From NCBI GenBank assembly GCA_040397215.1, contig JBBAWK010000001.1: a stretch of 64,000 nucleotides of DNA; one strand, 5' to 3'. Shown here in pieces: positions 14,660 to 56,454 of this stretch; position 1 is the stretch's first letter, and every line of letters begins with the position of its first letter. The position numbers and the translations under genes are program-made. The DNA comes from Candidatus Limnocylindrus sp. GTDB taxonomy: Bacteria; Chloroflexota; Limnocylindria; Limnocylindrales; Limnocylindraceae. The notes below the pieces were generated by a model. The model was given only the letters and a program-made list of their open reading frames with translations, searched no databases and was not told the origin of the DNA.

Positions 14660-14663
14660 GTGG

Positions 14664-15704: not shown

Positions 15705-15709
15705 GGCGG

Positions 15710-16750: not shown

Positions 16751-16759
16751 GTGCGCAGA

Positions 16760-19605: not shown

Positions 19606-19744
19606 TGCAATACTTCACCTCGTCCCAAACACGCTCCCAGCGCTTGCGCCACTGGAACGGTCGGCCGCACACCACGCAAATCTTTTCTGGGCGTTCGCTC
19701 GGCGGTCGATGCGGCTGCCGTGGTTCACGTCGTGCGCCGCCCAC
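19577..19744 (-). CDS. DUF2256 small Cys4 zinc-ribbon protein
   Basis: C-terminus [34 protein letters not shown] matches DUF2256. GTG at 19744 (2 nt after the CPD photolyase stop) is the only plausible start. 55 aa. Overlaps the next gene's start by 29 nt. Confidence 0.6.
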
Positions 19745-19746
19745 AG

Positions 19747-21228: not shown

Positions 21229-21347
21229 CGTCGGTAGATCATCGCACCTTACCCGCGCCGCGGGGCTCCCTCTCGGGGCGGTGACGGGGTACGATCCCCC
21301 CGCCGTGCGTTGCCCGGCAGCATCCAAGCAACCGAGAGCGGGGGGCT

Positions 21348-36573: not shown

Positions 36574-36602
36574 GCGCGCATCGTATCTGCTGCTCGAACG
36601 GA

Positions 36603-41489: not shown

Positions 41490-42983
41490 TTATTCGCCCT
41501 GGGCGCGGGTGAATCCCTCTTCGCTGCCCCACACACGGAGCTTCTCCAGGTGCACCCACGGTGCAACGCCTGCCACACGAGCGGCAAGCGCGAGGAGTTT
41601 CTCGTCAGGCAGATCGGAACCATCAGCGCGTGCCAAGAAGCGCGCGCGGAAGAGGCCCGTTGGGTCGAATGCGGGGGCAGCATTTGGCCACACCACCGTT
41701 CCCTTGCTCTCAATCATCTTAAGGGTGAGCTCCTGGCCGGCGAGGGCGGAGAGCTTGGCGCCGAGCTCAGCCGGCGACATGAGCGACTGCAAGAAGAGAT
41801 CGAGGCCAACAACGCGCGCTGTGCCGACTTCGCGCTCGCGCGCCTCGCCGCTGGTCCAGCGCGCATGCGGCTTCACATCAACAGGTCGTGGTCGGCTCGC
41901 GGCGGCGGGAACGGTTGTTGGACGCTTGCCGAGGCTCTCGATCACCGCATCAGCGAAACCGCTGGTGCTCGTTGCTGCCTCAACATCGCCACCCTGCTGG
42001 CGCACCACATCCTGTGGGAGTGCCTTCCCCGCTTCGAGCGTTGCAAGGACCGCGTCTTCAACCACATCGGCGAGATCAGTCTCACCCAAGTGGCGCAGCA
42101 TCATCGTTGATGACAGAATCAGCGCGGTTGGATTGATGACGTTCTTGCCGGCGTACTTCGGCGCAGATCCGTGCACCGCCTCGAAGATCGCCACGCCGTC
42201 ACCGTAGTTGGCGCTCGACGCAAATCCGAGTCCGCCAACAAGCCCAGAGGCAAGGTCGCTAATGATGTCGCCGTGCAAATTCGTGGCAACCACCACATCA
42301 AACTGCGCCGGGTCTTTCACCATCTGGTGCGCAACGTTATCAATGATTAGATGATTCGCTTCTAGCGACGAATACTCTTTGCTGAGATCTTCGCCGATCT
42401 GCTTGAAGAGTCCTTCGGTGAACTTCAGAATGTTCGCCTTGCTCGCAGTGGTGACCTTATGTCGACCTTCGCGTAGCGCAAGTTCGTAGGCGAAGCGAAT
42501 GATCTTCTCTGAGCCAGTTCGGCTGATCAGCTTGACCGCCTGTGCCACATCGTGCGTCTGAAGGTGCTCGATGCCGGCGTAGAGGTCTTCAACGTTCTCG
42601 CGCACGATGACCATGTTGATCCCTTCGCCCTTGTAGCGCGTTGGCACGCCTGGCAGCTCACGCGCAGGTCGAACGTTGGCGTACGTTTCAAAGAGTTTGC
42701 GCAGTGTGACGTTGGCACTCTTTTCGCCGAAGCCGACCGGCGTCTCGAGTGGCCCCTTCAGGGCGACGCGTGTGCGCTCAATGCTGTCGCGGGTCTCCTT
42801 TGGCACACCAGAGGTGTCGCCCTTCTTAAAGACTTCAGCACCAGCCTCAGCCTCCTCCCAGTCGAAGGCCACACCCGCCGTTGCGGCGGCAGCGTCAAGG
42901 ACGCGTTTTGTGGCGAGGGCAACCTCAGGGCCAACCCCGTCGCCAGGGATCAGGGTGATGGCGTGGCGTCGTGGGGTGGTCAT
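41490..42983 (-). CDS. icd: Isocitrate dehydrogenase (isocitrate/isopropylmalate DH family) with ~140-aa C-terminal extra domain
   Basis: 497 aa. Residues 1-355 are IDH-like (LIPGDGVGPE, SKANILK, NLHGDIISD, HGSAPKYAGKNVINPTA); residues ~356-497 form an additional domain. Confidence 0.85.
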   Translation of the reverse strand: MTTPRRHAITLIPGDGVGPEVALATKRVLDAAAATAGVAFDWEEAEAGAEVFKKGDTSGVPKETRDSIERTRVALKGPLETPVGFGEKSANVTLRKLFETYANVRPARELPGVPTRYKGEGINMVIVRENVEDLYAGIEHLQTHDVAQAVKLISRTGSEKIIRFAYELALREGRHKVTTASKANILKFTEGLFKQIGEDLSKEYSSLEANHLIIDNVAHQMVKDPAQFDVVVATNLHGDIISDLASGLVGGLGFASSANYGDGVAIFEAVHGSAPKYAGKNVINPTALILSSTMMLRHLGETDLADVVEDAVLATLEAGKALPQDVVRQQGGDVEAATSTSGFADAVIESLGKRPTTVPAAASRPRPVDVKPHARWTSGEAREREVGTARVVGLDLFLQSLMSPAELGAKLSALAGQELTLKMIESKGTVVWPNAAPAFDPTGLFRARFLARADGSDLPDEKLLALAARVAGVAPWVHLEKLRVWGSEEGFTRAQGE

Positions 42984-43001
42984 GCGCTCAGGATAGCGGG
43001 G

Positions 43002-44252
43002 TTAGCGTGCGGCGCTGGGGGCGGCGATCGGCAGGTTCACATAGCCGCGGAACTGGAAGCTGGGGCGGCGCACTGCCCCAGGAAGGAGCGCGATCTGAGG
43101 GAGCGCCTCGGCAAGTGCGCCAAAGAGAAGTTCGAGTTCTAGGCGGGCCAGCGGCGCGCCGATGCAGAAGTGAATCCCGCCACCGAACGAGAGGTGTGAT
43201 GTCTCACCACGCGCGATGCGGAAGGCGTCGGGGTTCTCGTACTTCTCGGGGTCACGATTCGAGGAGCCGATCATCAGGCCCACCTTTGCGCCGCGAGGGA
43301 TCTGCACGCCCCGCACCTCAAACCCGTCGTCGAGCACCCAGCGCTGAAAGAACTGCAGCGGCGGATCCCAGCGCAGGATCTCTTCGATCGCGCTCTTCAT
43401 CGGCACCGTTCCTGCGCGCAACAGCCGCCACTGATCTGGGTTCGCAGCGAAGGCGGCGACGCCGTTAGAGGCGGCGTTCACCGACGCTTCGTGTCCGGCC
43501 ATCAGGAGCACCATCACCGTGGAGATCACCTGCTCGTCGCTCAGGTGCTCGCCGTCGACGGTGGCATCAATGAGGCCAGAGAGCAGATCGTCGGCCGGTT
43601 GACGTCGGCGGGCTCGAATGAGGTCGGCAACGTAGGCGGAAAATTCGCGCACGGCGAGGTTGGCGTGATCCTTCACCGCGTCAGCGGGCGCCGGCTCATA
43701 CATCGAGACCACGTCGTGCGAGAGGGCGAGGATTCGCATGCGGTCAGGCTCTGGGACGCCGATCAGCTCACAGATGATCGTGAGTGAGAGCGGCTCGGCG
43801 AGATCCTGCACCAGGTCGAGGCTGCCCCGCTCACGTGCCGCGGCAATGCGCTCGCTAATGAGGCGGCTCGCCGGCTCCCGCTGCGCCTCAATGGAGCGCG
43901 GCGTGAAGGCGGTGGTGACGAGGCGGCGCAGCTTTGTATGGTCGGGCGGTTCAAGGGCGATCATGTCCCAGCGCTCAAACGCCTTGAAGTCCGCGTAGCG
44001 GTCGTCGCGCCACGGCTGCAGGTCGGCCGGGTCGCGAATGAACTCTTCGGCGGTATAGCGCTGCGAGAAATCGGAGCCGAGATGCTTATCGCGCCAGGCG
44101 GCATGCACGTCGGCGTGGCGGGTGATGAAGTGGATCCCACTCTGCGGCGAGTGCCAGACGGGGCCGTGCTCCCGAAGCCGGGTGTAGGCGGGAAAGGGAT
44201 CAAGCGCGGTCGCTGCGTCGGTCGGGTCGAAGAGCAGCTCTGAGTCCGCCAC
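43002..44252 (-). CDS. Cytochrome P450
   Basis: 416 aa. Heme-thiolate loop FGGGIHFCIGAPLA, ExxR EILRW, I-helix AGHEAS. Confidence 0.9.
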   Translation of the reverse strand: MADSELLFDPTDAATALDPFPAYTRLREHGPVWHSPQSGIHFITRHADVHAAWRDKHLGSDFSQRYTAEEFIRDPADLQPWRDDRYADFKAFERWDMIALEPPDHTKLRRLVTTAFTPRSIEAQREPASRLISERIAAARERGSLDLVQDLAEPLSLTIICELIGVPEPDRMRILALSHDVVSMYEPAPADAVKDHANLAVREFSAYVADLIRARRRQPADDLLSGLIDATVDGEHLSDEQVISTVMVLLMAGHEASVNAASNGVAAFAANPDQWRLLRAGTVPMKSAIEEILRWDPPLQFFQRWVLDDGFEVRGVQIPRGAKVGLMIGSSNRDPEKYENPDAFRIARGETSHLSFGGGIHFCIGAPLARLELELLFGALAEALPQIALLPGAVRRPSFQFRGYVNLPIAAPSAAR

Positions 44253-44256
44253 GCGG

Positions 44257-45042
44257 TTACGCTCCCGCGGCGCGGTCTCGGGCGATCAACAGGCGCAGTC
44301 CGTGTACGGCCGTGTCGATCACCGGATCAATCGAGAAGTTCTTCATTGAGGCCTGTGACTCCTCGTGCGTCATGGAGGGGCTGCCGACGCAGACCATGAT
44401 GCCGCCCGCGCGTGCGCGCAGGGTTGCCGCAACGATGAAGAGGGTGGCCGACTCCATCTCAGAGCTGATCGCACCGCCGCCGATCCAGGCCTTCCATCTT
44501 CGTGCGAGGTCGTCGGCCACCGGCATGCGCCCTGGCTCAACTTCGCCATAGAACGAATCCTTTGACTGCGCCACGCCAACGCGGTGGCGAACGTTGCGCT
44601 CGCGGGCCGCATCACGCATGGCCAGCACCACATCAAGATCGGCTACGGCGGGAAACTCCATCGGCAGGTAGTGACTGCTCGTCCCCTCGTCGCGAATCGC
44701 ACCGCTGATCACCGCTAGGTCGCCGGTCTGCATCCCTGGCTGCATGCCGCCCGAGGTCCCCACGCGAATAAACGTGTCGGCGCCAATGGCGTGCAACTCT
44801 TCGGCGGCGATCGCCGTTGAGGGGCAGCCGATCCCAGTTGAGGTGCATGCCACCGGTACGCCATCAAGCTCACCGACCCAGGTGGTGTACTCACGCTTCT
44901 GCGCCACGAATCGTGGGTTATCGAATCGGCGGGCAATCACCTCGACGCGACCAGGGTCACCTGGCAGCAGCACGTAACGACCAACATCGCCCTTCTTTAG
45001 GCCAAGGTGGTGAACGGTGCCGTCTGGTTCAAAGAGTGCCAT
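44257..45042 (-). CDS. udp: Uridine phosphorylase-family nucleoside phosphorylase (PNP/UDP-1), paralog A
   Basis: 261 aa, close to E. coli Udp across its length: HLGL, LLPGDPGRVE, REYTTW, ELDGVPV, CTSTGIGCPSTAIAAEEL, EFPAVAD, EMESATL. Confidence 0.8.
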   Translation of the reverse strand: MALFEPDGTVHHLGLKKGDVGRYVLLPGDPGRVEVIARRFDNPRFVAQKREYTTWVGELDGVPVACTSTGIGCPSTAIAAEELHAIGADTFIRVGTSGGMQPGMQTGDLAVISGAIRDEGTSSHYLPMEFPAVADLDVVLAMRDAARERNVRHRVGVAQSKDSFYGEVEPGRMPVADDLARRWKAWIGGGAISSEMESATLFIVAATLRARAGGIMVCVGSPSMTHEESQASMKNFSIDPVIDTAVHGLRLLIARDRAAGA

Positions 45043-45049
45043 ACGAGGA

Positions 45050-45943
45050 TTATGACGTGATCAGCGCGCGGATGGCGATGAACATCACGCCGACGAAGAC
45101 GATGATGCCGAAGAGGAACATCGCCGTCGCCACGAGGGGATCGAACTGCAGCGGCGTCGAGGCGCTCTGCCCCCAGTTCGCGAGCCCATACACCGTAAGG
45201 GCCGACATTGTGGCAATGCCGAGCACCCCTACGAACAGATCAAATGGCCCACTCGGCACGCGACGATACGAGGTCTTTACGCCCTTGGAGCCAAAGGCGC
45301 GTGACTCAAGGCTGATCGCGAGCTGCTGCACACGCTCAACAGCACCAGCTGCAACTGGCACAAACGATGGCACAATTGAGCCGAAGCCGGTCCCCTTCAT
45401 GCCGCGTGATCGCTGTGCCGCCAAGACGAGTTGCACTTCGCGCTGCAACACCGGAACAAGCTGGAGCGTCATGGAGATCATGAAGTTGATCAGATATGGC
45501 ACGCGCATACGTGCAAGCGACGCAAAGAGATCAGATGGGTGTGTTGTCAGGATTAGTGCGAATGCCATCGTTTGGAATGAGGCGACACGCAACATCAGTG
45601 AGATCGCATGCGAAAGTCCTTCGGTATAGATATGAAATGGGCCGACTGCAAGCGGAGTTCCGCAATGGTTTCCGCAAATTGCAGGAGCCAGCGATTGAAT
45701 CACAATAATTGATGCTGTGATCGGCGTAAAGATCACAAGGATCTTCGCGAGTGGCTTGATGATCTTCGATGTTAAGGCGATGACGATCGAGAAGAGGAAG
45801 ACCGCAAGCAACGGCAGCGGCGAATACGTGGTGAAGCAGAAGATTCCAGCCGGGAGCAGCCAGGCAAACTTCGCCACGGGGTCGAGGCGGTGCATCCATG
45901 AGGTTCCACGAACGTGGCTTACTGAGACGCTCGGTCCGTACAT
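45050..45943 (-). CDS. ecfT: ECF transporter transmembrane (T) component EcfT
   Basis: 297 aa CbiQ-family membrane protein with the conserved Arg-containing coupling motifs. Confidence 0.85.
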   Translation of the reverse strand: MYGPSVSVSHVRGTSWMHRLDPVAKFAWLLPAGIFCFTTYSPLPLLAVFLFSIVIALTSKIIKPLAKILVIFTPITASIIVIQSLAPAICGNHCGTPLAVGPFHIYTEGLSHAISLMLRVASFQTMAFALILTTHPSDLFASLARMRVPYLINFMISMTLQLVPVLQREVQLVLAAQRSRGMKGTGFGSIVPSFVPVAAGAVERVQQLAISLESRAFGSKGVKTSYRRVPSGPFDLFVGVLGIATMSALTVYGLANWGQSASTPLQFDPLVATAMFLFGIIVFVGVMFIAIRALITS

Positions 45944-46779
45944 TAGGCAGCTCCCATCTTCTTGCCACCAAGCTCAGCGGAGAGTTCAGTAACGCTCAGC
46001 GACGCTGGCCTACCCTTGCGGCTCTTCAGGCGCAACGAGATCTGCGTGACCTGTGGTGGCGCAATGTGCGTGCGCTCCATCACTTCGGTGTTCCCGAAGA
46101 CTTCGCGGGCACCACCGTCGGCAATGATCTTTGCGTTCCACATCACGATCATCCGCTCGCTCACGTCGGCCAAGAGCGGCATATCGTGGGAGACACAGAT
46201 CACCGTTGAGCCACGATCCTGCAGCCGATGAATTAACTGGTTGATCACCTTGGTGGTCTGATGGTCCTGGCCGGTGGTCGGCTCGTCGAGCACGAAGACC
46301 TTCGGGCCCATCGTGAAGACCGAGGCGATCCCCACCAACTTGCGCAGCGGGAAACTCAGTCGGTAGGGATGCATGTCGGCATACTGTTTGATGTCGAAGA
46401 ATTCCAGCGCGTGCGCGATCCGTTCGGCGATCTCTTCGGGTGGCAGCTTCAGGTTTGTTGGGCCGAAGGCCAACTCCGCCGTCACCGACGGGGCGAAGAG
46501 CTGGTGGTTCGGGTTCTGGAAGACGTAGCCAACCGTCGACGACATCTGCTGCACGGAATTCTTCGCCGTGTCCTTGCCGTCAACCACGATGCTCCCCGAG
46601 GTTGGCTTCAGCAGACCGTTCAACAGCTTGGTGAGTGTGGTCTTCCCTGAGCCGTTTTGACCAACGATGCCGACCGACTGCCCCTCAGGGATCTCGAGGT
46701 TGACGCCATCAAGTGCGAGTACCGCGCCGTTTGAATACACATAACGTGCGTCGGTGACCTTAATCAACGGCGTGCTCAT
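45943..46779 (-). CDS. ecfA2: ECF transporter ATPase EcfA2
   Basis: 278 aa ABC ATPase ([19 protein letters not shown]). Overlaps ecfT by 1 nt. Confidence 0.85.
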   Translation of the reverse strand: MSTPLIKVTDARYVYSNGAVLALDGVNLEIPEGQSVGIVGQNGSGKTTLTKLLNGLLKPTSGSIVVDGKDTAKNSVQQMSSTVGYVFQNPNHQLFAPSVTAELAFGPTNLKLPPEEIAERIAHALEFFDIKQYADMHPYRLSFPLRKLVGIASVFTMGPKVFVLDEPTTGQDHQTTKVINQLIHRLQDRGSTVICVSHDMPLLADVSERMIVMWNAKIIADGGAREVFGNTEVMERTHIAPPQVTQISLRLKSRKGRPASLSVTELSAELGGKKMGAA

Positions 46780-47621
46780 GATCGCGCCTCCAACCAGGTC
46801 ACGGCTTGGTCCGTGGTGACGGGAAGATCCTTCGCACCTGCGGGCGCAAGCGAGAGTGCCAGTTCCGTTGCCTGTGGCACACGTAATCCGATCTTGGCAA
46901 GTTCGGCGCCGCGCGAGAAGACTTCGCTCGGCGTACCAATCATCACGATCTCTCCCTGGTGGAGCACGACAATGCGATCGGCGTAGGCGGCAAGAACTTC
47001 GGCTTCATGCTCGGCAACGATCACCGTCATCCCCTCTTCGCGATTCAATTTACGGGCCAGCTCAAACACCTCCTCCTTGCCGATCGGATCAAGGTTTGAG
47101 GTTGGCTCATCCATGAAAAGAATCTTTGGCTGCATCGCAAGCACCGATGCGATCGCGAGTCGCTGCTGCTGACCGCCCGAGAGACCCATTGGTGAGCGCT
47201 CCTCAAAGCCGGCGAGTCCAACGGTGCCGAGTGCCGCGCCAACGCGCGGTGGCATCTCTTCATTTGGAACGCCAAGGTTCTCTAAGCCGAGAGCGACCTC
47301 TTCGGCGGCACTCACCTGGCTCATCTGAAATTCAGGGTTGTCAAACACAATGCCAACGGTGCGCGCCATCTCGCGCACGGGGGTGGTGGAGGTGTCGAGC
47401 CCCTCAACGGTGACGTTCCCCTCGTAGATGCCCATCGTGGATTGCGGAACGATGCCGTTAATGGAGAGGCCGAGCGTTGTCTTGCCCGCACCGTTAAGTC
47501 CCATGATGCCAAGGTATTCGCCGCGCTTAATCTCAAGATTGATCTTGTTCAGTGCCGGCTTCTCACCACCGGAATAGGTGAAGCTGAGATTCTCAATCTT
47601 GACGGCGATCTCTCCAGCCAA
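46776..47621 (-). CDS. ecfA1: ECF transporter ATPase EcfA1
   Basis: 281 aa ABC ATPase (GLNGAGKTTL, LSGGQQQRLAIA, MDEPTSNLD). TTG start with GGAGG 5 nt upstream. Confidence 0.85.
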   Translation of the reverse strand: MAGEIAVKIENLSFTYSGGEKPALNKINLEIKRGEYLGIMGLNGAGKTTLGLSINGIVPQSTMGIYEGNVTVEGLDTSTTPVREMARTVGIVFDNPEFQMSQVSAAEEVALGLENLGVPNEEMPPRVGAALGTVGLAGFEERSPMGLSGGQQQRLAIASVLAMQPKILFMDEPTSNLDPIGKEEVFELARKLNREEGMTVIVAEHEAEVLAAYADRIVVLHQGEIVMIGTPSEVFSRGAELAKIGLRVPQATELALSLAPAGAKDLPVTTDQAVTWLEARS

Positions 47622-47673
47622 TGTGACCTCCTACCTCTCTTCGATGATCCTGTGAGATGCAGTGTGTAGCGAA

Positions 47674-47707
47674 CCGCCCGATCGCACTATGCGGTGCGAC
47701 CGGGCGG
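47674..47707 (-). other. 14-bp stem-loop in the 120-nt spacer between the small ORF and ecfA1
   Basis: ccgcccgatcgcac-tatgcg-gtgcgaccgggcgg. On the minus-strand RNA the single mismatch becomes a G·U pair. No downstream U-tract. Confidence 0.4.
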
Positions 47708-47740
47708 CTGTCGCGCTCGTCATCGCGACGATTTAACTGT

Positions 47741-47956
47741 TCAGTCCTTTGCGCGAATAACGGCGACGCCTGCGCCAAGCGTAAAGAGGCCTGCAAGCAC
47801 ATTCATTGCTGCAAGCATCGGGAACGCCTGGTCAGGTGCATCGATCTTGATAGCGCTTGCGGCGAACGGCAATGCGATCACGAAGATACCCATTGCAATT
47901 ACGCCGACAGCTGCGGCCTCACGAGGCCCAACCGTTGCTCCAGTATCTTTTGCCAT
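47741..47956 (-). CDS. Small (71-aa) two-TM membrane protein co-transcribed with the ECF S-component
   Basis: ATG preceded by AAGGAGGAG at a 6-nt spacing; starts 12 nt after the S-component stop. Sequence MAKDTGATVGPREAAAVGVIAMGIFVIALPFAASAI... Confidence 0.5.
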   Translation of the reverse strand: MAKDTGATVGPREAAAVGVIAMGIFVIALPFAASAIKIDAPDQAFPMLAAMNVLAGLFTLGAGVAVIRAKD

Positions 47957-47968
47957 GATTTCTCCTCC

Positions 47969-48658
47969 TTACGCTGGCTTGATCTGGCTGTATACGTACA
48001 GCAAGATGACGATGCCAACGCCAAGTCCAACGAGCACCATCTTGAGCGCGCCGCTCTGGTCAGTTTTCGGAAGGCCAACGCCAGCCGTAAGGCCAGATGG
48101 CAACGCTCGAAGAATGGCAAGGCCGATGAACGTTGCAATCAACTTGTCGGCGGTCGAACCTGGAAGGCCGCCGAGGAATGAGGCTGCAAGCACACCGGTG
48201 CCGCCTGAGGCGAGCGCCGCCACGAGCGCGTCCGAGGAGTGCCCGGTGGCACCACCGAAGACGAATGTAATGATTGGCGCAGCCATTGCCTGAACGGCAA
48301 TACCGCAGATCACTCCAACGGCAATCAAGCCTGGGAGCGACTTGCCGAGGCCGAAGTTACGGATACCGTAACCCCAGACGAGGGCGCCAACGACGTTACA
48401 GAGCGCGAACGGAATCCCAACGGGACCGTTGACCAATGAGCCAGCGGTGTTCGTGATGATTCCGGTGAGGGCGCCCCACCAAGGTCCGAGCGCGACGCTC
48501 ACGACCATGGTCCCGATCATGTCGAGGAAGATCGGTACGTTTACGAGCTTGATAATGAATCCGCCGACGATGTTGAGGGCCGCCATCACTGGCACAAGGA
48601 CCGCAACGTACGAGAGCGGGATTCGCTGGGCGGCGCGTGCCGCTGCTGCTCCTGACAT
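47969..48658 (-). CDS. ECF transporter substrate-specific (S) component, substrate unknown (nucleoside/queuosine-type suspected)
   Basis: Internal ATG at 48658 (MSGAAAARAAQRIPLSYVAVLVPVMAAL) with GGGAGGAA SD. 229 aa, about six TM helices, Gly-rich like ECF S-proteins. The N-terminal 79 aa of the track ORF lie in the leader. Confidence 0.6.
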   Translation of the reverse strand: MSGAAAARAAQRIPLSYVAVLVPVMAALNIVGGFIIKLVNVPIFLDMIGTMVVSVALGPWWGALTGIITNTAGSLVNGPVGIPFALCNVVGALVWGYGIRNFGLGKSLPGLIAVGVICGIAVQAMAAPIITFVFGGATGHSSDALVAALASGGTGVLAASFLGGLPGSTADKLIATFIGLAILRALPSGLTAGVGLPKTDQSGALKMVLVGLGVGIVILLYVYSQIKPA

Positions 48659-48767
48659 CTCTGTTCCTCCCTTTCGTCGGTCCCCACTCAGAGAGCCGAC
48701 CTGTTTCGCCTGGGGTGACAACGTCACCCTTGGCTTTACAACCAAACGGCAACCCGCCGTTGCGCGC

Positions 48768-48795
48768 ACGTTATGCTTCCTTAACCTGTTGTCAA
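48768..48795 (-). promoter_or_regulatory. Candidate sigma-70-type promoter for the S-component operon (TTGACA-16 nt-TAACGT on the minus strand)
   Basis: Hexamers read by eye in the 249-nt divergent intergenic region. Predicts a ~105-nt leader containing three GC-rich hairpins. Confidence 0.3.
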
Positions 48796-48907
48796 GCCCC
48801 TGATGCGTCAGGCGAGTCAGCGACCGAGGGGTTGCGGCAGTGGGCTTCGGGGTATGGTCTCCCCCTTGGGGAGCGCGGGCCAGGGGGCCCATCACGAGGA
48901 GGCATTC

Positions 48908-49915
48908 ATGCGAGGGAAGTGGTGGTCGAACCCGATTCTGAGCTCACTGACCCCAGTGGTTGAGGGTTCTGGGTTTGTTACAACAAACGAGGGGGAGGTC
49001 CGGCGGGTGGCGACGTGGATGGCCGCCGAGGAGTTCCCCGACTTCCGCTCCACCGCCCCAGCTGCGAAGAGCCCCTTCGACATCGGCTCCGACCCCGACA
49101 AGAACATCGACCTCACGATGCTCATCGCCATCCTCAACTTCGCCTTTACCGACTTCGCCACCTCCAAGAAGTTCGAAGTCACCTATAACGGGGTCCGCTA
49201 CTCCGACAGCGAGGCGATGTTCGCCTGCCTGCACAAGGCGATCCTGGCTGGGCAGCCAATCCTCACCGGCCAGTGGGCCGCAGGGGTCACTCGCCGCGAC
49301 CTTGAGGAGCTCTTCCGTGGCGACAACGAGATGCCGATGCTCGATGAGCGAGTCGTGGCACTCAATACGGTCGGCGCCGCCCTAACCGAGAAGTACGACG
49401 GGAAGTGGCACCGCTGGGTCGCTTCATGTGCGCCCGCCCTGTACGCCGGTGGCGATGGGCTGTTGGAGCGACTCGTCACTGAGTTCCCACGCTTCGACGA
49501 TTTGAGCGACTGGAAGGGGCACAAGATCCAGATTCAGAAGCTCTCGCAGCTTGGCTTGTGGGGCTTGCACCGTGGCCTAGCCCCACTCGGTCGCACAGTG
49601 CTGAAAGATCCAGAGATGTGCACGGCGTTTGCCGACTACATCGTGCCGGTCGCACTGCGCACCATGGGAATCTTTCAATACGAAGCATCACTGGAGAAGC
49701 GGATTATGGCTGGCGAAATGATCCAGCGAGATTCACTTGAAGAGATTGAGATTCGTGCGCACAGCATCTATGCAACAGCGCTCCTCACCGACGAGGTGAA
49801 CGCGCGACGACCAGCCGATAAGCAGCTGCTGATTCCGGAGGTTGACTACCGACTCTGGAAGACGTATCACGCGACGCACTATCCGCACCATCTAACGCGA
49901 ACGATCATGTACTAA
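48908..49915 (+). CDS. DUF2419 / Q_salvage-family protein (Qng1-like queuosine-nucleotide N-glycosylase homolog)
   Basis: ATG at 48908 with GAGGAGG 6 nt upstream. 335 aa. C-terminal region FADYIVPVALRTMGIFQYEASLEKRI...SLEEIEIRAHSIYATALL resembles the conserved FADYRVPQ...EEVEIRxxS block I recall for DUF2419/QNG1 (not database-verified). Confidence 0.5.
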   Translation: MRGKWWSNPILSSLTPVVEGSGFVTTNEGEVRRVATWMAAEEFPDFRSTAPAAKSPFDIGSDPDKNIDLTMLIAILNFAFTDFATSKKFEVTYNGVRYSDSEAMFACLHKAILAGQPILTGQWAAGVTRRDLEELFRGDNEMPMLDERVVALNTVGAALTEKYDGKWHRWVASCAPALYAGGDGLLERLVTEFPRFDDLSDWKGHKIQIQKLSQLGLWGLHRGLAPLGRTVLKDPEMCTAFADYIVPVALRTMGIFQYEASLEKRIMAGEMIQRDSLEEIEIRAHSIYATALLTDEVNARRPADKQLLIPEVDYRLWKTYHATHYPHHLTRTIMY

Positions 49916-49917
49916 CG

Positions 49918-51141
49918 GTGTCGAAGAGGCCACGCGGCGCACGTTCGCTGCCATTCGCTGATGTTCTCTCGCTAGATGGCGCTGTCGTCACATCACTCGG
50001 TGGGCTGATTGCACGCGCGCCCGTCGCCATGGTGCCGATCGGGCTGATTGCAATCGGTAGCGGAGCGTTGAACTCCTACGCCGTTGGTGGCGCTGCTGCT
50101 GGCGCCTTCTCTATTGCAAACGCGGTTGGCGCAACGCTGATTGGTCGATCGGCTGATGAGCAGGGGCATCAACGAACACTAATTCGTGCGACCGCTGTGA
50201 TGCTCGTTGCCGCAGCGGCGATCACTGCCGTGGCACTTGCGGCGCCTGAAGCGGTCTTACTGATTGCAGCATCGGCGCTTTTCGGCGCTGCAACGCCAAA
50301 CATCGGCTCGATCATTCGTGCGCGTTGGACCGCTGTGGTGAAAAGCGGACCACTGCGACTCCGTGCCATGGCACTAGAGTCTGTGAACGATGAGGTGAAC
50401 TTCCTGATCGGTCCACCGCTTGCATCACTCCTGATTGTGCAAGGGCTCCTCTGGGGGCCCATCGCGGTCGCCGCGCTCCTATCGCTGATCGGGCTCATTG
50501 CCGTGTTGTCGCAGCGAAAGTGGGAGCCGGCGCTGCACGCACCAGATGCTGCGGGCATGGCTGGGGCGATTCGAGAAAACGGGCTGCTCATTGTGAGTGC
50601 GGCTGGAATTGGTTTGATCCTCGGTTCAAGCCAGGTGTTACTACTTGGATACTGCACGGCAATTGGTGCGGCGACCGGCATTGCGCTGGCTCTTGGATTG
50701 AACTCTGGAGCAAGCCTCGTTGGTGCAATTCTCATCGGCGCAAAGAGCGATTGGCGCTGGTCGGCGGAGCGGCGATTCGCCGTGGCCGCGATCTTCTTCG
50801 CACTTGTCACGATCCCTACGGCGCTCGTTGACGGTTACGTGCCGTACCTGATTGTCACGACAATCGCGGGCTTCGGCATCGCACCGATGTTTATTCAGAT
50901 CAATGCGGCGGTCGCAGAGCGAGCCGGTGGTTCTGCTCGAAGTGGTGCATTTGCCCTCATCGGTGGTGGTGTTGTGTTCGGCATCTCTGCCGGTTCGGCA
51001 ATCGGTGGCGTAGCGATTGACGCGGCTGGGGCTTCGGATGCGCGGCTGGTTTTGATCCCGCTGGTGCTCCTGATGGTGCTCCCGATCCTGCTTGGAGCTC
51101 AGCGCGCCGAGAAGCGCCCGACCCGCTCCGCAAAGCGCTGA
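49918..51141 (+). CDS. MFS transporter
   Basis: 407 aa, twelve TM helices; starts 2 nt after the DUF2419 gene. Confidence 0.75.
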   Translation: MSKRPRGARSLPFADVLSLDGAVVTSLGGLIARAPVAMVPIGLIAIGSGALNSYAVGGAAAGAFSIANAVGATLIGRSADEQGHQRTLIRATAVMLVAAAAITAVALAAPEAVLLIAASALFGAATPNIGSIIRARWTAVVKSGPLRLRAMALESVNDEVNFLIGPPLASLLIVQGLLWGPIAVAALLSLIGLIAVLSQRKWEPALHAPDAAGMAGAIRENGLLIVSAAGIGLILGSSQVLLLGYCTAIGAATGIALALGLNSGASLVGAILIGAKSDWRWSAERRFAVAAIFFALVTIPTALVDGYVPYLIVTTIAGFGIAPMFIQINAAVAERAGGSARSGAFALIGGGVVFGISAGSAIGGVAIDAAGASDARLVLIPLVLLMVLPILLGAQRAEKRPTRSAKR

Positions 51142-52109
51142 AGGAAGGCCTCGCCGTCGCCGGCTATGGCGACGCGGCTGTTCGCTGGGGTGTTGGTGCG
51201 GCCCCGCACATCCACGAGAAGGTCTCCCTGCGTGATCCCCTCACGCGTCTCAACGGCGCTCGGCGCACTGATGATGGTTGCAAGCCCTGCATCAAGCGCC
51301 ATCGCCACGGTGAAGGCGTCGTGAATGTGTGACCCCTCGATCTTGTCGTACTGCAGGTGGAACTCGTCGTAGAAGCGCAGCGCCTCGTCGATTAGGCGCA
51401 AGACCGGGTTGAGTGTGGCATCGCCGCGCTGTGCGCCAACACGGCCGGCTGCGGCAACGAGTGCCGCCCAATGCGGCGGTCGAATGAGTGCCGACTCTGT
51501 GGCATCAAGTGGCAAGATGAGCGCGGGTCGGCCCGCTGCAGCACAGGCGCGAATCACCTCGTCAAGTGCCTCAGGGTCACACCAGGCGTTCCACTCACTG
51601 CGCGCACCAGTGTTCCCTGGAGTTGCAACAGCGCCAGTCATCAACACCACGTCGTGTAAGAGCGTCGGTAGCTCGGCGTCAATTCGGAAGGCGGCGGCAA
51701 TGTTGGTGGCCGGCGCGCAGCCGATGATCGTCACGGCGCCAGGATGACGACGCACCTCGGCAACGATGCGCGCGGCAGCGGCGTTCGTGCCATCGGCGGA
51801 GGGGGTGCTGAGCGCGCGTGATAGCGCAGGGAGAACGGCGTACCCAAGACCAGTTGGCCCGTGTGTCTCTGGTGTGGTGACCAGCGCCTTCACGAGCGGC
51901 GTACGAGCGCCGGCGATCACGTCGATGTGCGACGCACCCGCAACGTCGAGCACGCCACGCGTGTTGCGCACGACTGCTTCGAGGTTAACGTTCCCTGGTG
52001 CACAGGTTGCAACGAGCAGCTCGGCATCGGGTGATGCGAGTGCGTAGAGGAGCGCCATTGCATCATCGATGCCCGTGTCGACATCGAGGATGAGTTTCTG
52101 CTGTGGCAT
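51099..52109 (-). CDS. Nucleoside hydrolase (IunH/RihA-like; cf. QueK)
   Basis: 336 aa with the calcium-binding aspartate cluster LILDVDTGIDDAMAL at the N-terminus. Confidence 0.85.
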   Translation of the reverse strand: MPQQKLILDVDTGIDDAMALLYALASPDAELLVATCAPGNVNLEAVVRNTRGVLDVAGASHIDVIAGARTPLVKALVTTPETHGPTGLGYAVLPALSRALSTPSADGTNAAAARIVAEVRRHPGAVTIIGCAPATNIAAAFRIDAELPTLLHDVVLMTGAVATPGNTGARSEWNAWCDPEALDEVIRACAAAGRPALILPLDATESALIRPPHWAALVAAAGRVGAQRGDATLNPVLRLIDEALRFYDEFHLQYDKIEGSHIHDAFTVAMALDAGLATIISAPSAVETREGITQGDLLVDVRGRTNTPANSRVAIAGDGEAFLQRFAERVGRFSAR

Positions 52110-52120
52110 GCGCGCGAGCG

Positions 52121-52909
52121 CTACTTGATGCGGCCGGCGGCGCGATCCGCCGCAATGAGCTTGCGCAGGCCCGCGATTGACGTATCGATCACGCGATCAA
52201 TCGATGAGTCGGCAAGCTCTGCCTCGGTCATTGGGCGCTGATCTGGATTGCCAAGGATCAACATTGCGCCGCCTGCGCGCACGCGCAGCGTTGCCGCAAC
52301 GATGAAGAGCGTTGCCGCCTCCATCTCGGAGCAGATTGCGCCACCTGCCATCCATGCCTTCCAGCGACGCTGCAGGTCCTCGGCGATCGGCATGCGCTCG
52401 GGATTGTGCTGGCCGTAGAACGAATCCTTTGACTGTGCGATGCCAACGTACCAAGGGAAGCCGCTCTCCTTCGCCGCCTCACGCAACGCGAGTGTGATGT
52501 CGAGATCGGCGACCGATGGGAACTCCATCGGTAGGTAGTGGCGACTGGTGCCTTCGTCGCGAATGGCGCCGCTAATGATCCCAACCGAGCCCGGCTTGAT
52601 GTGGTGCTGCATGGAGCCCGAGGTGCCGACGCGAATGAAGGTGTCAACGCCAACGTCTGCAAGCTCTTCTACAGCGATCGCCGTCGATGGGCAGCCGATG
52701 CCGGTCGAGGTGCAGGCAACAGGCACGCCGTCGAGTTCACCCGTCCAGGTGGTGTATTCGCGGCGGCGCATCAGGAACTTCGGGTTGTCAAAGCGGCTGG
52801 CGATGACCTCAACGCGATCCGGGTCGCCTGGGAGCAGCACGTAGCGGCCAACCTCGCCGTTGCGAATACCAATATGGTGCTTGCGGCCGTCGCTCTCGGT
52901 TGCTGCCAT
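52121..52909 (-). CDS. udp: Uridine phosphorylase-family nucleoside phosphorylase, paralog B
   Basis: 262 aa with the same Udp motif set as paralog A (roughly 70-75% identical by eye). Start overlaps the ribokinase stop as ATGA. Confidence 0.8.
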   Translation of the reverse strand: MAATESDGRKHHIGIRNGEVGRYVLLPGDPDRVEVIASRFDNPKFLMRRREYTTWTGELDGVPVACTSTGIGCPSTAIAVEELADVGVDTFIRVGTSGSMQHHIKPGSVGIISGAIRDEGTSRHYLPMEFPSVADLDITLALREAAKESGFPWYVGIAQSKDSFYGQHNPERMPIAEDLQRRWKAWMAGGAICSEMEAATLFIVAATLRVRAGGAMLILGNPDQRPMTEAELADSSIDRVIDTSIAGLRKLIAADRAAGRIK

Positions 52910-53844
52910 CAGCGCGTTCCTCTCACTAGATTTGGTGCGGCGAGTTTCGCCGCCTCTTCTTTCGAAATGTAGCTGCTCTGTGTGCCTGGCTTCTGCACGC
53001 TCTCTGAGGCGCAGGCTACGGCAAGTTCTGCCGCCCGAACAGGGGTGAGGCCACTGGCCAGACCGAAGGAGAAGGCGCCGAGGAACGAGTCGCCCGCCCC
53101 GGTCGTGTCGACCACGGTCACCTTCGGCGCGCTCACGCGCTGAAGGGGCTGACCACGCTCGGCGATTGCGGCACCGTAGCCACCGAGGGTCACCAGCAGG
53201 TTGACGCCGCTCTTCGCTGCGGCGGCAAGGATGCGCTCGTCGGCACCGTCGCCAATCGCCGAACCGCCGAAGAGGGTCGTGAACTCCATCTCGTTTGGCG
53301 CGAGCCAGTCCGAGAGGGCGAGGAGCTCAGGTTCGATGGGTGCGGCGGGGGCTGGGTTGAGCAGGGTGGTGATCCCCGCAGCACGTGCCGCGCGGAAGGC
53401 GGCGAGCGTTGTTGCTTGTGGAATCTCGAACTGGCCCACGACAATGGTTGGCTTGAAGTCGCGAATGGCCGCCTCGGCGACGGCTGGGTCGGTCTCGTTG
53501 TTGGCGCCGGGGACGATGATGATGCGGTTGATCCCATTCGCGTCGACCCAGATCGGCGCCACGCCACTAGAGCCTGGAACGGTGCGCATCCAACGCGTGT
53601 CGATCCCCTCGCGCACAAAGTTCGCGAGATGTGAAGCGCCGTACGCGTCGTCACCGACGGCGTTGACCATGGCGACGGGGGCGCCGAAGCGCGCCGCCTG
53701 CACCGCCTGGTTCGCCCCCTTCCCGCCGAAGCCCATCTGGAAGCGATCGCCGACCAGGGTCTCACCCGCATTGGGGATGACCTTGGCGTACGAGATCAGG
53801 TCCATCATGGTGCTGCCGACGACGAGAATGCGAGCGCTGCTCAT
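52909..53844 (-). CDS. rbsK: Ribokinase (PfkB family)
   Basis: Internal ATG at 53844 (MSSARILVVGS) with GGAGG SD. FGGKGANQAV and DTTGAGDSF motifs. 311 aa. Confidence 0.85.
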   Translation of the reverse strand: MSSARILVVGSTMMDLISYAKVIPNAGETLVGDRFQMGFGGKGANQAVQAARFGAPVAMVNAVGDDAYGASHLANFVREGIDTRWMRTVPGSSGVAPIWVDANGINRIIIVPGANNETDPAVAEAAIRDFKPTIVVGQFEIPQATTLAAFRAARAAGITTLLNPAPAAPIEPELLALSDWLAPNEMEFTTLFGGSAIGDGADERILAAAAKSGVNLLVTLGGYGAAIAERGQPLQRVSAPKVTVVDTTGAGDSFLGAFSFGLASGLTPVRAAELAVACASESVQKPGTQSSYISKEEAAKLAAPNLVRGTR

Positions 53845-53920
53845 AGAGCCTCCGTGCTGGGTAATTTGCTGTGGGGAGTCTACCGCCATCAGGGTTGGCG
53901 GTTGGCTGGGTTCCCGCCTG

Positions 53921-54307
53921 TTACTTAGCGCGCAGCGTCTCGATTGCCTTCTGCGCAGTCTCAAGCCCAAGCAGCGCGCAGTGGATGCGCGTGGGGCCAA
54001 CCTCTACCCCAAGGAGCTCCATCACGAAGGGACTGCTGAGCGCCAGGATCTCATCGATGCGCTTGCCCCGCAACTCGTCGGTAATGAGCGAGGTCCCCGC
54101 CTGCGAGATGGCGCAGCCACGGCCGCTGAAGGCCACATCGGTGATCACGCCCGCGTCATCAAGTTGTAGTTGCAGATTTATGACGTCACCACAGTTTGGA
54201 TTGCGCCCTTCGAGGCTCACGCTGGGTGCAGCGAGGGTTCCCTGGTTGTGCGGGCGGCGATGGTGCTCAAGGATCTGCTCCCTGTAGAGATCGTCTATAC
54301 CACCCAT
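53921..54307 (-). CDS. sufU: SUF-system Fe-S cluster scaffold/sulfurtransferase SufU (NifU-like)
   Basis: 128 aa: NPNCGD, GRGCAISQA, RIHCALL cysteine and metal ligands. Confidence 0.85.
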   Translation of the reverse strand: MGGIDDLYREQILEHHRRPHNQGTLAAPSVSLEGRNPNCGDVINLQLQLDDAGVITDVAFSGRGCAISQAGTSLITDELRGKRIDEILALSSPFVMELLGVEVGPTRIHCALLGLETAQKAIETLRAK

Positions 54308-54310
54308 GAC

Positions 54311-55567
54311 TTACCCCTCAAATACTTTGCGCGCGTCGCGCAGGCCAGCGAACAGGGCGTCGAGATCGTCGTGTGTGGTGAAGGGGGCAACGCTGACGCG
54401 CGCCGAGGAGCTGAGCTCCAGCTGCTCGTGGAGCGGCTGGGCGCAGTGGAAGCCGGCTCGAATAGCCACCCCACGGCGGTCGAGGATCTCAGCAAGGTCA
54501 TGGGCGTGCACGAGATCGCTCGAGAAGGCGACCAGGCCGGCGCGCTGGCTAGCGTCCCGCGGCCCAAGGATTCGAGCGTCGGGGAGCACCTCAGGGAGCT
54601 CGCGCAGCACGCGCTCAATCATGAGCGCCTCGTGCGCGTGGATCTTGTCGCGGCCGAACTCGTCGAGCAGGTCACAGGCGGCGGCGAGGGCTACGGCACC
54701 CGACGCGTCGGGGGTGCCCGCCTCAAATCGCTGGGTGCCCGTCGCAAAGTCGGCGTCGCGCAGGCGCACGCTGTGGATCATGTCGCCACCGGTTTCAATC
54801 GGCGCCATCTCGGAAAGGAGGTCGGCACGCGCCCAGAGGCCGCCGCCAGCGAAGAGGCCGCCCATCTTGTGTGCACTAAAGGCGTAGAAGTCGGCGCCAG
54901 TGGCGGGAATCGAGACGGGCATGTTCGCGACCGCCTGGCAGCCGTCGACACAGAGGAGTGCGCCAACGGCGTGCGCCGCTTCGGCAATCTGGGCCAGTGG
55001 TGCAATGGAGCCAAGCACGTTGGAGACGTGCCCAAGAGCGACCATCTTTGGCTTCAACTTCATGAGCGAGTCGAGGCGATCCCAGAGGATCTCGCCGGTT
55101 ACGTCGTCAACGGGGATGAATTCAAGGTCAGCATCCATCTCGCGTGTGATCTGCTGCCACGGGATGAGATTTGCGTGATGCTCTGCCTCAGTGACGAGCA
55201 CCACGTCGCCGCGGCGCAGGTTTGCTTTGCCCCACGAAAGCGCGACAAGATTGAGCGCTTCTGTGGCGCTGCCGAGCAGCACCAGCTCGCTCGCTGGCAC
55301 GTTCAAATACGTAGCGATGCGCGCGCGGGCCCCTTCGTACCCGTCGGTCGCCATCTGGGCGAGGGCATACGAGCCGCGGTGCGGGTTCGCATTCGCGGTG
55401 AAGAGGTACTTTGAAAGTGCATCAACAACGCGCTGAGGGCGCTGCCCTGTCGCGGCGCTGTCAAGATAGTGCAGTGGCCGACCGCCAGGTTGCGTCTTAA
55501 AGATTGGATATTCGGCGCGTACCTTTACTGGGTCTAGCGCGCCGTCAGCGTTATGCCACATGCTCAT
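54311..55567 (-). CDS. sufS: Cysteine desulfurase, SufS-like (aminotransferase class V)
   Basis: 418 aa. PLP-lysine region FSAHKMGG, C-terminal active-site region. Sits between sufC and sufU. Confidence 0.85.
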   Translation of the reverse strand: MSMWHNADGALDPVKVRAEYPIFKTQPGGRPLHYLDSAATGQRPQRVVDALSKYLFTANANPHRGSYALAQMATDGYEGARARIATYLNVPASELVLLGSATEALNLVALSWGKANLRRGDVVLVTEAEHHANLIPWQQITREMDADLEFIPVDDVTGEILWDRLDSLMKLKPKMVALGHVSNVLGSIAPLAQIAEAAHAVGALLCVDGCQAVANMPVSIPATGADFYAFSAHKMGGLFAGGGLWARADLLSEMAPIETGGDMIHSVRLRDADFATGTQRFEAGTPDASGAVALAAACDLLDEFGRDKIHAHEALMIERVLRELPEVLPDARILGPRDASQRAGLVAFSSDLVHAHDLAEILDRRGVAIRAGFHCAQPLHEQLELSSSARVSVAPFTTHDDLDALFAGLRDARKVFEG

Positions 55568-55590
55568 TTTGCGAGCCTACACCCGCCGCG

Positions 55591-56454
55591 TTACGCCGAC
55601 GGCGCTGGTGCAGCTGTCGGCGTTGCCGCCTCTTCTGCCGTAGGGCTGATGCCGTTCTCGGCAAGGATCGGCGCGTACCCTTCGCTCTCTAGCCGGTGCG
55701 CCAGATCTGGTCCACCTGAAACGACGATGCGGCCGCGCGCGAGCACGTGCACGAACTGTGGCTTCAAGTAATCGAGCAGTCGCTGATAGTGCGTAATTAC
55801 CAATACCCCGAGCTCTGGCGAGAGCATCGTGTTCACTCCTTCGGCAACAATGCGCAGCGCATCGATGTCAAGGCCAGAGTCGGTCTCGTCGAGGATCGCC
55901 ATCTCTGGCTTCAGCAGAGCCATCTGCAACATCTCAAGGCGCTTCTTCTCGCCGCCCGAGAACCCATCATTCACGTAGCGCGTCATAAATGCCTCGTCCA
56001 TCTTCAGTTGCGTGAGCTTCTCTTTGACGAGCTTTCGGAACTCGCCCATCGTCATGCCGCCCTTCACTGGGTCCGACGGATCGAACTCAGGATCGCGTAC
56101 CAAGCCGGAGCGACGCGCATTCATTGCGGTGCGCAAGAAGCTCGCAACGGAGAGACCAGGAATCGAGGTTGGATACTGGAAGGCCAAGAAGAGGCCGAGT
56201 CGCGCGCGTTGGTCGGCGCTGTAGTCGAGCAGGTTCTCACCCTTCCAGAGGACAGTGCCAGAGACGATTTTGTAGCTCGGGTGTCCCACTAGCGCGTAGC
56301 TGAGGGTCGTTTTGCCGGAGCCGTTCGGCCCCATGATCGCGTGCACTTCGCCCGGTTTCACCGTCAGCGAGATCCCCTGAAGGATGTGCTTGCTCAGATC
56401 GCTCGAAGGTGCGACGACGAGGTCCTTGATGACCAGATACGCGTTCTCACTCAT
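55591..56454 (-). CDS. sufC: Fe-S cluster assembly ATPase SufC
   Basis: 287 aa: [46 protein letters not shown]. Low-complexity C-terminal tail [15 protein letters not shown]. Confidence 0.9.

Follow-up and report, generated by a model that had tools for sequence, protein, structure and literature searches.

A gene island in a 64,000-nucleotide stretch of DNA from Candidatus Limnocylindrus, a freshwater Chloroflexota, combines an energy-coupling factor (ECF) importer with two uridine phosphorylase (Udp) paralogs, a DUF2419 protein related to the queuosine-cleaving enzyme Qng1, an IunH-type nucleoside hydrolase, a ribokinase, a major facilitator superfamily (MFS) transporter and a cytochrome P450. 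We analyzed this stretch at its full length (the window) and, with a probability of roughly 0.55, read the locus as a composite, horizontally shuffled island through which streamlined freshwater bacteria scavenge nucleosides and harvest their ribose, with several enzymes of unassigned specificity. Read in this way, the locus operates in the manner of the classical systems that take up and break down nucleosides (nup/pnr with deo, rih and rbsK) and is no new principle; queuosine may be one of its substrates, and the locus is not primarily a supply of queuine for tRNA.

Neighbors of the qng1-like gene were sought by tblastn of all window proteins against the loci of relatives, and conservation was counted over loci that extend 6 kb or more to each side of that gene. 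Copies of the Qng1-like protein with 97% identity were found in metagenome-assembled genomes of Candidatus Limnocylindrus and Aquidulcis, freshwater Chloroflexota, and copies with 52–57% identity in acI Actinobacteria (Planktophila, Nanopelagicaceae). Within Limnocylindrus the locus showed full synteny: rbsK, both udp genes and the P450 gene were kept in all five loci, and the ECF genes, the MFS gene and iunH in four of the five. One Limnocylindrus species (L011) kept udp-A, the qng1-like gene, udp-B and rbsK but has lost its ECF genes, its MFS gene and its iunH; at L011 7500-10000, where these would stand, there are unrelated small open reading frames (ORFs) and a masked N-run. In acI genomes the qng1-like gene adjoins rbsK, two adjacent Udp paralogs, two or three IunH copies and a P450 gene (two Udp in 16, IunH in 16, rbsK in 15 and P450 in 14 of 17 acI-type loci). 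The gene set recurs in at least five lineages besides Limnocylindrus, acI included.

Part of the conservation within the genus is simple synteny, because the isocitrate dehydrogenase gene and the suf genes that flank the island, unrelated housekeeping genes, are also syntenic in Limnocylindrus; in other lineages these flanks lie outside the conserved island. The view that the whole neighborhood is a chance assembly of unrelated housekeeping genes draws on this flanking synteny and is nevertheless scarcely tenable, as the same families recur in other orders and orientations, in other phyla and at GC contents of 36–68%, including contexts retrieved with the S component of the importer as an independent query. 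In L061 and L062 the PfkB-family kinase gene (the ribokinase family) is divergent from the qng1-like, MFS and iunH genes, in L063 it is divergent from the qng1-like gene with a P450 gene convergent, and in L065 it is divergent from the qng1-like gene. In L064, from another Chloroflexota, genes for a LacI regulator, the Qng1-like protein, the S component, a 78-amino acid ORF, A, A', T, Udp, Udp and an MFS transporter are co-directional, with the PfkB gene divergent. All three contexts found with S-component homologs (L071, L072 and L073) had the order S, an ORF of 75–88 amino acids, A, A', T, Udp, Udp; the Udp pair is followed in L071 and L072 by P450, MFS and Qng1-like genes, and in L073 by MFS and IunH genes, with no Qng1 and with a GntR/UTRA regulator upstream.

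These arrangements resolve the island into two modules. Module A comprises the ECF importer (S, a small subunit with two transmembrane helices, A1, A2 and T) and two phosphorylases of the Streptococcus pyogenes uridine phosphorylase (SpUP) type, often with the P450; module B comprises the ribokinase, the Qng1-like protein and the MFS transporter, often with IunH. Each occurs alone in some genomes and joined to the other in others: L061, L063 and L065 have module B without ECF or Udp genes, and L073 has module A without Qng1. The regulators, where present, are of the LacI (L064, acI) or GntR/UTRA (L073) type, types that are usual for catabolic operons. The neighborhood is conserved across phyla. 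An original prediction from the window's letters and ORFs had suggested the uptake and dismantling of a ribonucleoside, and our results support a conserved functional unit of this kind. That prediction had also held the combination to be undescribed, and we found no published description of it, nor any published account of an ECF system combined with a uridine phosphorylase or of the 'CD3073' family, to which the S component came nearest; a seemingly relevant Dual Tn-seq preprint has as its subject PnrABCD and an MFS cytidine transporter, not an ECF system.

The original prediction had listed eleven genes in three transcription units. Our ORF map and profile searches recovered all eleven, on the strands and essentially at the coordinates claimed (Table 1), but the list was incomplete: it overlooked the P450 gene, which lies on the strand of udp-A and begins 4 nt past the udp-A stop. 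The three units are plausible because the genes inside each abut or overlap: ecfA1 and ecfA2 overlap by 4 nt, ecfA2 and ecfT share one base at 45943, rbsK and udp-B share one base, and 2 nt separate the qng1-like gene from the MFS gene. A comparison of the ecfS/qng1 intergenic region with the one upstream of rbsK revealed no shared operator, only short, unrelated imperfect inverted repeats, of which the region 48659-48907 holds one.

Both Udp phosphorylases are closest to SpUP (3QPB), at ∼48% identity; SpUP is also the best PDB match of UdpA (236 bits). Against TIGR01718, UdpA scored 280.3 bits, exactly the cutoff, and UdpB 276.5 bits, below it. Alignment with E. coli uridine phosphorylase showed that the phosphate- and ribose-binding residues are all kept in both proteins. 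UdpB and its orthologs have the motif SKDSFYGQH, in which SpUP K162, Q168 and H169 are kept, whereas UdpA and its orthologs have SKDSFYGE(V/L/I), with K162 kept, Q168 replaced by Glu and H169 by Val, Leu or Ile (Val in UdpA). K162, Q168 and H169 reportedly bind uracil in SpUP (Tran et al. 2011). A census over all loci counted 40 GQH copies and 38 GE[VLI] copies, and nearly every locus with two Udp genes has one of each. The duplication is an old one, with selection acting on both copies, and this suggests that they differ in base specificity; judged from its Glu/aliphatic pocket, the UdpA-type paralog probably takes a different base from the canonical one.

The PfkB kinase scored 280.6 bits against the ribokinase model TIGR02152 (cutoff 299.65), and its acI ortholog 301.5. 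All of its top PDB matches are ribokinases, human RBKS being the best at 185 bits, and the ribose-binding residues D16, K43, N46 and E143 and the catalytic D255 (E. coli numbering) align with human RBKS. On these alignments the protein is best read as a true ribokinase. Of all neighbors of the qng1-like gene, its gene is the one present in the largest number of lineages, and in L063 and L065 it stands beside that gene even though no Udp or IunH gene lies within the 10-kb flanks read on each side. Pseudouridine catabolism by PsuK and PsuG uses a PfkB kinase and a nucleotide glycosidase; by analogy we considered the island's kinase as a missing queuosine kinase and set this aside as the main reading in view of the ribose-binding residues and of solved relatives that are all ribokinases. 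Directly upstream of the ECF/Udp operon in L071, a 621-amino acid protein (5025-6890(+)) fuses a PfkB kinase domain to a PNP_UDP_1 domain and is followed by another, divergent PNP_UDP_1 protein; this fusion ties a sugar or nucleoside kinase to phosphorylase function in the same pathway.

The IunH protein has as its best solved relatives E. coli RihA and the IU-NH enzymes of Leishmania and Crithidia (∼115 bits), and both the DxDxxxDD calcium site ('DVDTGIDD') and the leaving-group His ('HD') align with E. coli RihA. Among named models, RihA, UriH and RihC came out best, each with a score far short of its cutoff. A second IunH-family hydrolase is encoded at 35638-36645(-) (PF01156, 300.8 bits). 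It lies upstream of the cluster, ∼6.4 kb from the P450 end, next to genes for a LON-substrate-binding-domain protein and an Fe-S assembly protein.

The importer is of the dedicated (group I) ECF type, with S, T and two A subunits encoded contiguously or with overlap in one operon and with an S-component fold. For the S component, NF045596 ('CD3073 family') is the nearest model and not a membership, at 103.8 bits against a cutoff of 180; PF12822 gave 20 bits, below its cutoff. The protein is of no known vitamin type: ThiT, RibU and BioY were not matched in Pfam or NCBIfam, and a FolT-family model reached 16 bits against a cutoff of 60. Its AlphaFold2 (AF2) model, with a predicted local distance difference test (pLDDT) score of 85.9, matched the FolT, RibU and ThiT folds with a probability of 1.0 at 15–19% identity, a generic structural likeness, with no close relative among the solved S components. 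In every context seen (L064 and L071–L073) the unit of S, small ORF, A, A' and T precedes two Udp genes, ecfT being syntenic in these loci, and we infer that the S component is a nucleoside-binding subunit.

The 71-amino acid ORF of this operon gave no family match in profile searches. Counterparts of 75–88 amino acids occupy the same operon position in L064, L071, L072 and L073, so that five lineages, the window included, have it, and the family shares a TVGP(R/K) motif and two hydrophobic segments; the ORF is a genuine gene. Group I ECF systems for metals (CbiMNQO, NikMNQO) also have a small membrane subunit as an accessory, and the ORF recalls CbiN among these, without sequence similarity. 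The S component was accordingly considered as a CbiM-type metal unit, on a JGI annotation and the CbiN-like small ORF, and this was rejected, as CbiM is not matched and the metal-binding N terminus is absent.

In the acI island the importer is replaced. The transporter slot holds a PnrA/Bmp-type substrate-binding protein (PF02608, 182 bits) and a CUT2-type ABC system in place of the ECF unit, and a LacI regulator, DeoC, aldehyde dehydrogenases and an adenosine deaminase (Add) are encoded there along with the 2–3 IunH copies. Directly adjoining the qng1-like gene in acI (L024 10975-11436(-) and its equivalents) is a gene for a nucleoside 2-deoxyribosyltransferase-family protein of 150–153 amino acids (PF05014, 66 bits), which is absent from the window.

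The Qng1-like protein is one of the components that had pointed the original prediction to queuosine. The DUF2419 assignment was confirmed (PF10343, 169.1 bits against a cutoff of 25, E 2e-49). The AF2 model (pLDDT 89.5) has a helix-hairpin-helix (HhH) two-lobe fold, and Foldseek gave template modeling scores of 0.84–0.88 to 7U07 (S. thermophilus Qng1, StQng1) and 7U1O and 0.84 to 7UGK; identity to Qng1 is 25–28%. Residue roles were taken from Hung et al. 2023 (PMC9881137) and mapped by HMMER alignment to the solved chains. The catalytic residues are kept and clade-invariant (nucleophile St D231 = D243, HhH K199 = K211, Y232 = Y244), as are the residues that read and stack on the 7-deazaguanine (St D298 = D313, W302 = W317) and the C-terminal Tyr (St Y323 = Y335). 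The ribose-stacking residues (St F75 = F80, Y232 = Y244) are likewise kept and clade-invariant, and the aliphatic St I203 corresponds to L215.

The cyclopentenediol pocket (St P46, W48, H53, Y93, W94 and W299) is not conserved as a specificity pocket. In a confidently aligned region St Y93 corresponds to S101 and W94 to E102, and W299 corresponds to Y314; in a loop of uncertain alignment W48 becomes Gly or Ala and H53 becomes Asp or a gap. Across the clade the W94 position is Glu, Asp, Leu or Gln, position 93 is constantly Ser, Ala or Thr, and position 233 is constantly Ile. As to the contacts of the 5'-phosphate, St R80 corresponds to K88, Y232 is kept and K233 is replaced by the clade-invariant I245, while Q306 lies within a 3-residue deletion in the HMMER alignment and is paired with an invariant His by MAFFT. 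The clade thus appears to have lost one, perhaps two, of these contacts, and the protein belongs to a distinct PF10343 subfamily with a remodeled substituent pocket.

A full HMMER scan placed PF10343 at 1815 representative clusters. Among the nearest 100 full-length representatives the St-type Y-W-K-Q signature is limited to a minority, and the family is functionally heterogeneous for that reason. None of the island's neighbors accompanies the three bacterial Qng1 genes of St type that were checked, from Sphaerobacter, Nitrolancea and one uncultured genome. One member of the Qng1-like clade, on a 2.7-kb JGI contig too short for context (P0362), has an N-terminal GNAT acetyltransferase fusion, which hints at an amine-bearing substrate or product.

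The same evidence bears on whether the locus serves queuosine (Q) salvage for tRNA. In that case Q or a derivative would be imported by the ECF or MFS transporter, the Qng1-like enzyme and/or a QueK-like IunH would free queuine, the ribokinase would recycle the ribose, and queuine or preQ1 derived from it would be inserted by a TGT encoded elsewhere. We consider this unlikely. It gains from the strong PF10343 match and Qng1 fold, from the conserved catalytic Asp, Lys and Tyr, base-face Asp and Trp and C-terminal Tyr, and from the frequent auxotrophy of organisms with streamlined genomes. The nucleoside Q is itself cleaved by StQng1, which prefers Q 5'-monophosphate (Q-5'-MP) only 1.7-fold (PMC9881137). 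A survey of bacterial Q-salvage signature genes (bTGT, Qng1, QueK) reported MFS and PF12822 transporters nearby, with PF12822 clustering with QueK in a supplementary table, and some Qng1-encoding species without bTGT (PMC11130926). The main text and supplements of that survey contain neither an association of Qng1 with Udp, ribokinase/PfkB, IunH or P450 genes nor the taxa of the island.

Against queuosine salvage stand the unconserved cyclopentenediol pocket, the loss of the K233 contact and the lack of a clear equivalent of Q306. For the S component no QueT match was obtained in Pfam or NCBIfam at E≤0.01. An Rfam search revealed no match at E≤1 in 43000-54500 and none at the gathering score in 8 related loci, and hence no preQ1 riboswitch there. 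The original statement that the window holds no tgt was borne out by tblastn with E. coli proteins, which detected neither TGT nor QueA in the window or in ∼65 related loci. The three canonical Qng1 genes lack the island context, and two pyrimidine-type phosphorylases, DeoC, Add and a dedicated ribokinase would be needless for flux on a micronutrient scale. The LacI and GntR regulators point elsewhere, as does the PnrA/Bmp nucleoside importer in the acI slot. The original emphasis on queuosine was therefore not supported, in view of the altered pocket, the missing QueT match and riboswitch and the lack of a nearby tgt or queA, while the proposal of nucleoside uptake and dismantling was. In the same window, a radical S-adenosylmethionine (SAM) protein of the lysine-2,3-aminomutase type (61956-63515(-), PF12544 and PF04055) is by its family no candidate for QueL or QueE.

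A more specific, oxygen-dependent version of indirect queuine salvage in aerobic freshwater bacteria may also be formulated. The Qng1-like enzyme would free queuine from imported Q, the ribokinase would reclaim the ribose, and the co-conserved CYP107-like P450 would use O2 to N-dealkylate queuine to preQ1, in the role of the oxygen-sensitive radical-SAM lyase QueL of Clostridioides; a canonical TGT encoded elsewhere would use the preQ1, and the ECF system would be a new Q-type importer. We hold this route to be very improbable.

The P450 and the MFS transporter bear on a different alternative. The P450 is intact (Cys loop FGGGIHFCIG, I-helix AGHEAS), and its orthologs share 54–60% identity in L063, L071 and L072 and 36% in acI. 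All orthologs share the I-helix motif AGHEA(S/T), in which Ala takes the place of the Thr conserved in most P450s; reportedly, P450eryF carries this Thr-to-Ala change too, and a hydroxyl of its substrate takes part in catalysis. Among solved relatives CYP107P2 of S. avermitilis is the best match (8YHN, 343 bits), an orphan from which no function can be transferred. The MFS protein has weak similarity to drug/H+ antiporter models and homologs at 27–41% identity, and the order of a qng1-like gene followed by an MFS gene recurs in L061, L071, L072 and acI.

This alternative is a dedicated pathway for one particular modified or toxic nucleoside, for which 7-methylguanosine, a 7-deazapurine nucleoside antibiotic, a glycosylated Q or a thiolated uridine would be among the candidates. 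That compound or its base would be the target of the P450, the Qng1-like enzyme and the variant Udp, and a base of no use to the cell would leave through the MFS protein. We consider such a pathway unlikely. In its favor are the conserved remodeling of the Qng1-like substituent pocket, the conservation of the 'GE[VLI]' Udp paralog in several lineages, the presence of an orthologous P450 in four, the likeness of the MFS protein to drug/H+ antiporters and the GNAT acetyltransferase fusion in one Qng1-like clade member. Against it, the same loci hold a canonical uridine phosphorylase, a generic IunH and a ribokinase, together with DeoC and Add in acI, which fits an ordinary nucleoside mixture; the two modules occur separately, and the sequence singles out no candidate compound.

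Under the nucleoside-scavenging reading that we prefer, the ECF system would import nucleosides present at very low concentration, and the two Udp phosphorylases would split pyrimidine-type nucleosides into base and ribose-1-phosphate. IunH and the Qng1-like enzyme would hydrolyze other nucleosides to base and free ribose, the latter acting on a guanine- or 7-deazaguanine-type nucleoside and not on a 5'-nucleotide; a nucleoside substrate giving free ribose fits both the close association with the ribokinase and the weakening of the phosphate site. The ribokinase would trap the free ribose as ribose-5-phosphate, the MFS protein may move the released base or nucleoside, and the P450 may modify the base or a side chain. 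A role in micronutrient supply only is argued against because the flux would be big enough to warrant a co-located ribokinase.

Several points weigh against this reading. Known ECF transporters import micronutrients, not bulk carbon sources, and the P450 and the drug-antiporter-like MFS protein have no obvious job in plain nucleoside catabolism. The alignment around the St W48/H53 loop is uncertain, with an AF2 pLDDT of 70–74 there. A 7-deazaguanine substrate is still plausible because the catalytic residues and those facing the 2-amino-6-oxo side of the base are all intact in the Qng1-like enzyme. The only activity shown for PF10343 is the release of queuine from Q and Q-5'-MP, and neither StQng1 nor human QNG1 cleaves GMP, AMP, UMP or CMP (PMC9881137).

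The ecological setting fits nucleoside and ribose scavenging. Limnocylindrus and the acI/Nanopelagicales are among the most abundant lake bacteria, with streamlined genomes and nutrient dependencies that are poorly understood. A 2025 study of Nanopelagicales described abundant Planktophila without the oxidative pentose phosphate pathway and with a distinct RbsK, and Nanopelagicus without de novo purine synthesis (PMC12817590). If the scavenging reading is true, the island shows how such cells get ribose-5-phosphate and nucleobases from dissolved nucleosides. Its uncharacterized variants comprise the ECF importer, which has an extra subunit, the Qng1 subfamily, whose pocket is remodeled, the Glu/aliphatic Udp paralog and the orphan P450 tied to nucleoside metabolism. 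We know of no nucleoside-specific ECF importer, and the island's ECF family may be the first. For the widespread Qng1 subfamily the annotation 'queuosine salvage protein' is probably wrong, and a check of the pocket is needed before a PF10343 annotation is transferred.

Table 1. Features of the island and its flanks in the window, in order of position.
Feature	Position	Strand	Basis
Isocitrate dehydrogenase with bacterial C-terminal domain, island flank	41490-42983	-	profile search
Cytochrome P450, CYP107-like, last gene of ECF/udp-A operon	43002..44252	-	PF00067
udp-A, SpUP-type nucleoside phosphorylase, 'GE[VLI]' type, altered base pocket	44257..45042	-	PF01048 (PNP_UDP_1), TIGR01718 280.3 bits
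ecfT, ECF T component, EcfT/CbiQ family	45050..45943	-	PF02361 85 bits
ecfA2, ECF ATPase A2	45943..46779	-	TIGR04521 235 bits, PF00005
ecfA1, ECF ATPase A1	46776..47621	-	TIGR04520 267 bits, PF00005
71-amino acid ORF, two-helix membrane protein, conserved ECF accessory subunit	47741..47956	-	conserved operon position
ECF S component, uncharacterized family	47969..48658	-	NF045596 103.8 bits, PF12822 20 bits
Divergent intergenic region, ECF operon versus qng1-like/MFS operon	48659..48907	.	no Rfam match
Qng1-like predicted N-glycosidase, DUF2419, distinct subfamily, altered substituent pocket	48908..49915	+	PF10343 169 bits, E 2e-49
MFS transporter	49918..51141	+	PF07690
iunH, group I nucleoside hydrolase, RihA/IU-NH-like	51099..52109	-	PF01156 243 bits
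udp-B, SpUP-type uridine phosphorylase, canonical uracil-binding triad	52121..52909	-	TIGR01718 276.5 bits
rbsK, predicted ribokinase, PfkB family, closest to eukaryotic RBKS	52909..53844	-	PF00294 208 bits, TIGR02152 280.6 bits
sufU, sufS, sufC, island flank	53921-56454	-	sufC assigned by order and sequence

Elsewhere in the window, three tandem phosphotriesterase-family (PF02126) paralogs followed by an MFS gene (13616-17989(-)) resemble a separate small catabolic or lactonase-type operon. At 21348-23962(+), purA (adenylosuccinate synthetase) adjoins purB (adenylosuccinate lyase), which together lead from IMP to AMP. An AlkZ-like DNA glycosylase is encoded at 323-1594(+), and a photolyase beside a photolyase-related DPRP protein at 18034-21327(-).

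Of the known systems, Qng1/QNG1 from S. thermophilus and human (PMC9881137) is the nearest to the DUF2419 protein, with the same Pfam family, the same HhH two-lobe fold and, common to both, the nucleophile Asp, the HhH Lys, the stacking Phe and Tyr, the guanine-face Asp and Trp and the C-terminal Tyr. The island protein lacks the aromatic cyclopentenediol box of W48, Y93 and W94 (and H53), and its partners are the ribokinase, IunH, Udp, ECF and MFS proteins, whereas the three St-type genes checked stand alone. The chemistry, N-glycosidic cleavage of a guanine-like nucleoside, is likely shared, but to class the locus as Qng1-type queuosine salvage would be wrong, since the protein was examined for the specificity pocket and does not conserve it. 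Queuosine salvage in Clostridioides difficile (QueK, QueL and QrtT/QueT; PMC11130926) resembles the island in having an ECF S component and an IunH hydrolase, with import followed by glycosidic cleavage. The island differs in having no radical-SAM QueL, QueT match or preQ1 riboswitch and in having a dedicated ECF system with an extra two-helix subunit, two Udp proteins, a ribokinase and a P450.

The CbiMNQO and NikMNQO transporters likewise have dedicated operons, with a small membrane protein of two helices encoded directly after the S unit and with T and A subunits. The island proteins have no sequence match to CbiM or CbiN, the S unit has no metal-binding N terminus, and the operon continues into nucleoside phosphorylases. 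SpUP (3QPB) has in common with UdpB the K162, Q168 and H169 triad, in contrast to the UdpA-type paralogs, in which Q168 is Glu and H169 is Val, Leu or Ile. PsuK/PsuG and the island both pair a PfkB-family kinase with a glycosidase related to a nucleotide-cleaving enzyme; the island kinase has the ribose-binding residues of true ribokinases, has ribokinases as its top PDB matches and most likely acts after glycosidic cleavage, not before.

The PnrA/Bmp (NupN-type) nucleoside ABC importers that accompany deo, rih and rbsK genes are of the same transporter type as the one that fills the acI slot, and there, as in classical nucleoside catabolic operons, phosphorylases, hydrolases, a ribokinase and DeoC follow the importer. 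Compared with the classical deo/nup operons, the importer in the window is an ECF system, and the Qng1-like protein and the P450 belong to the island only.

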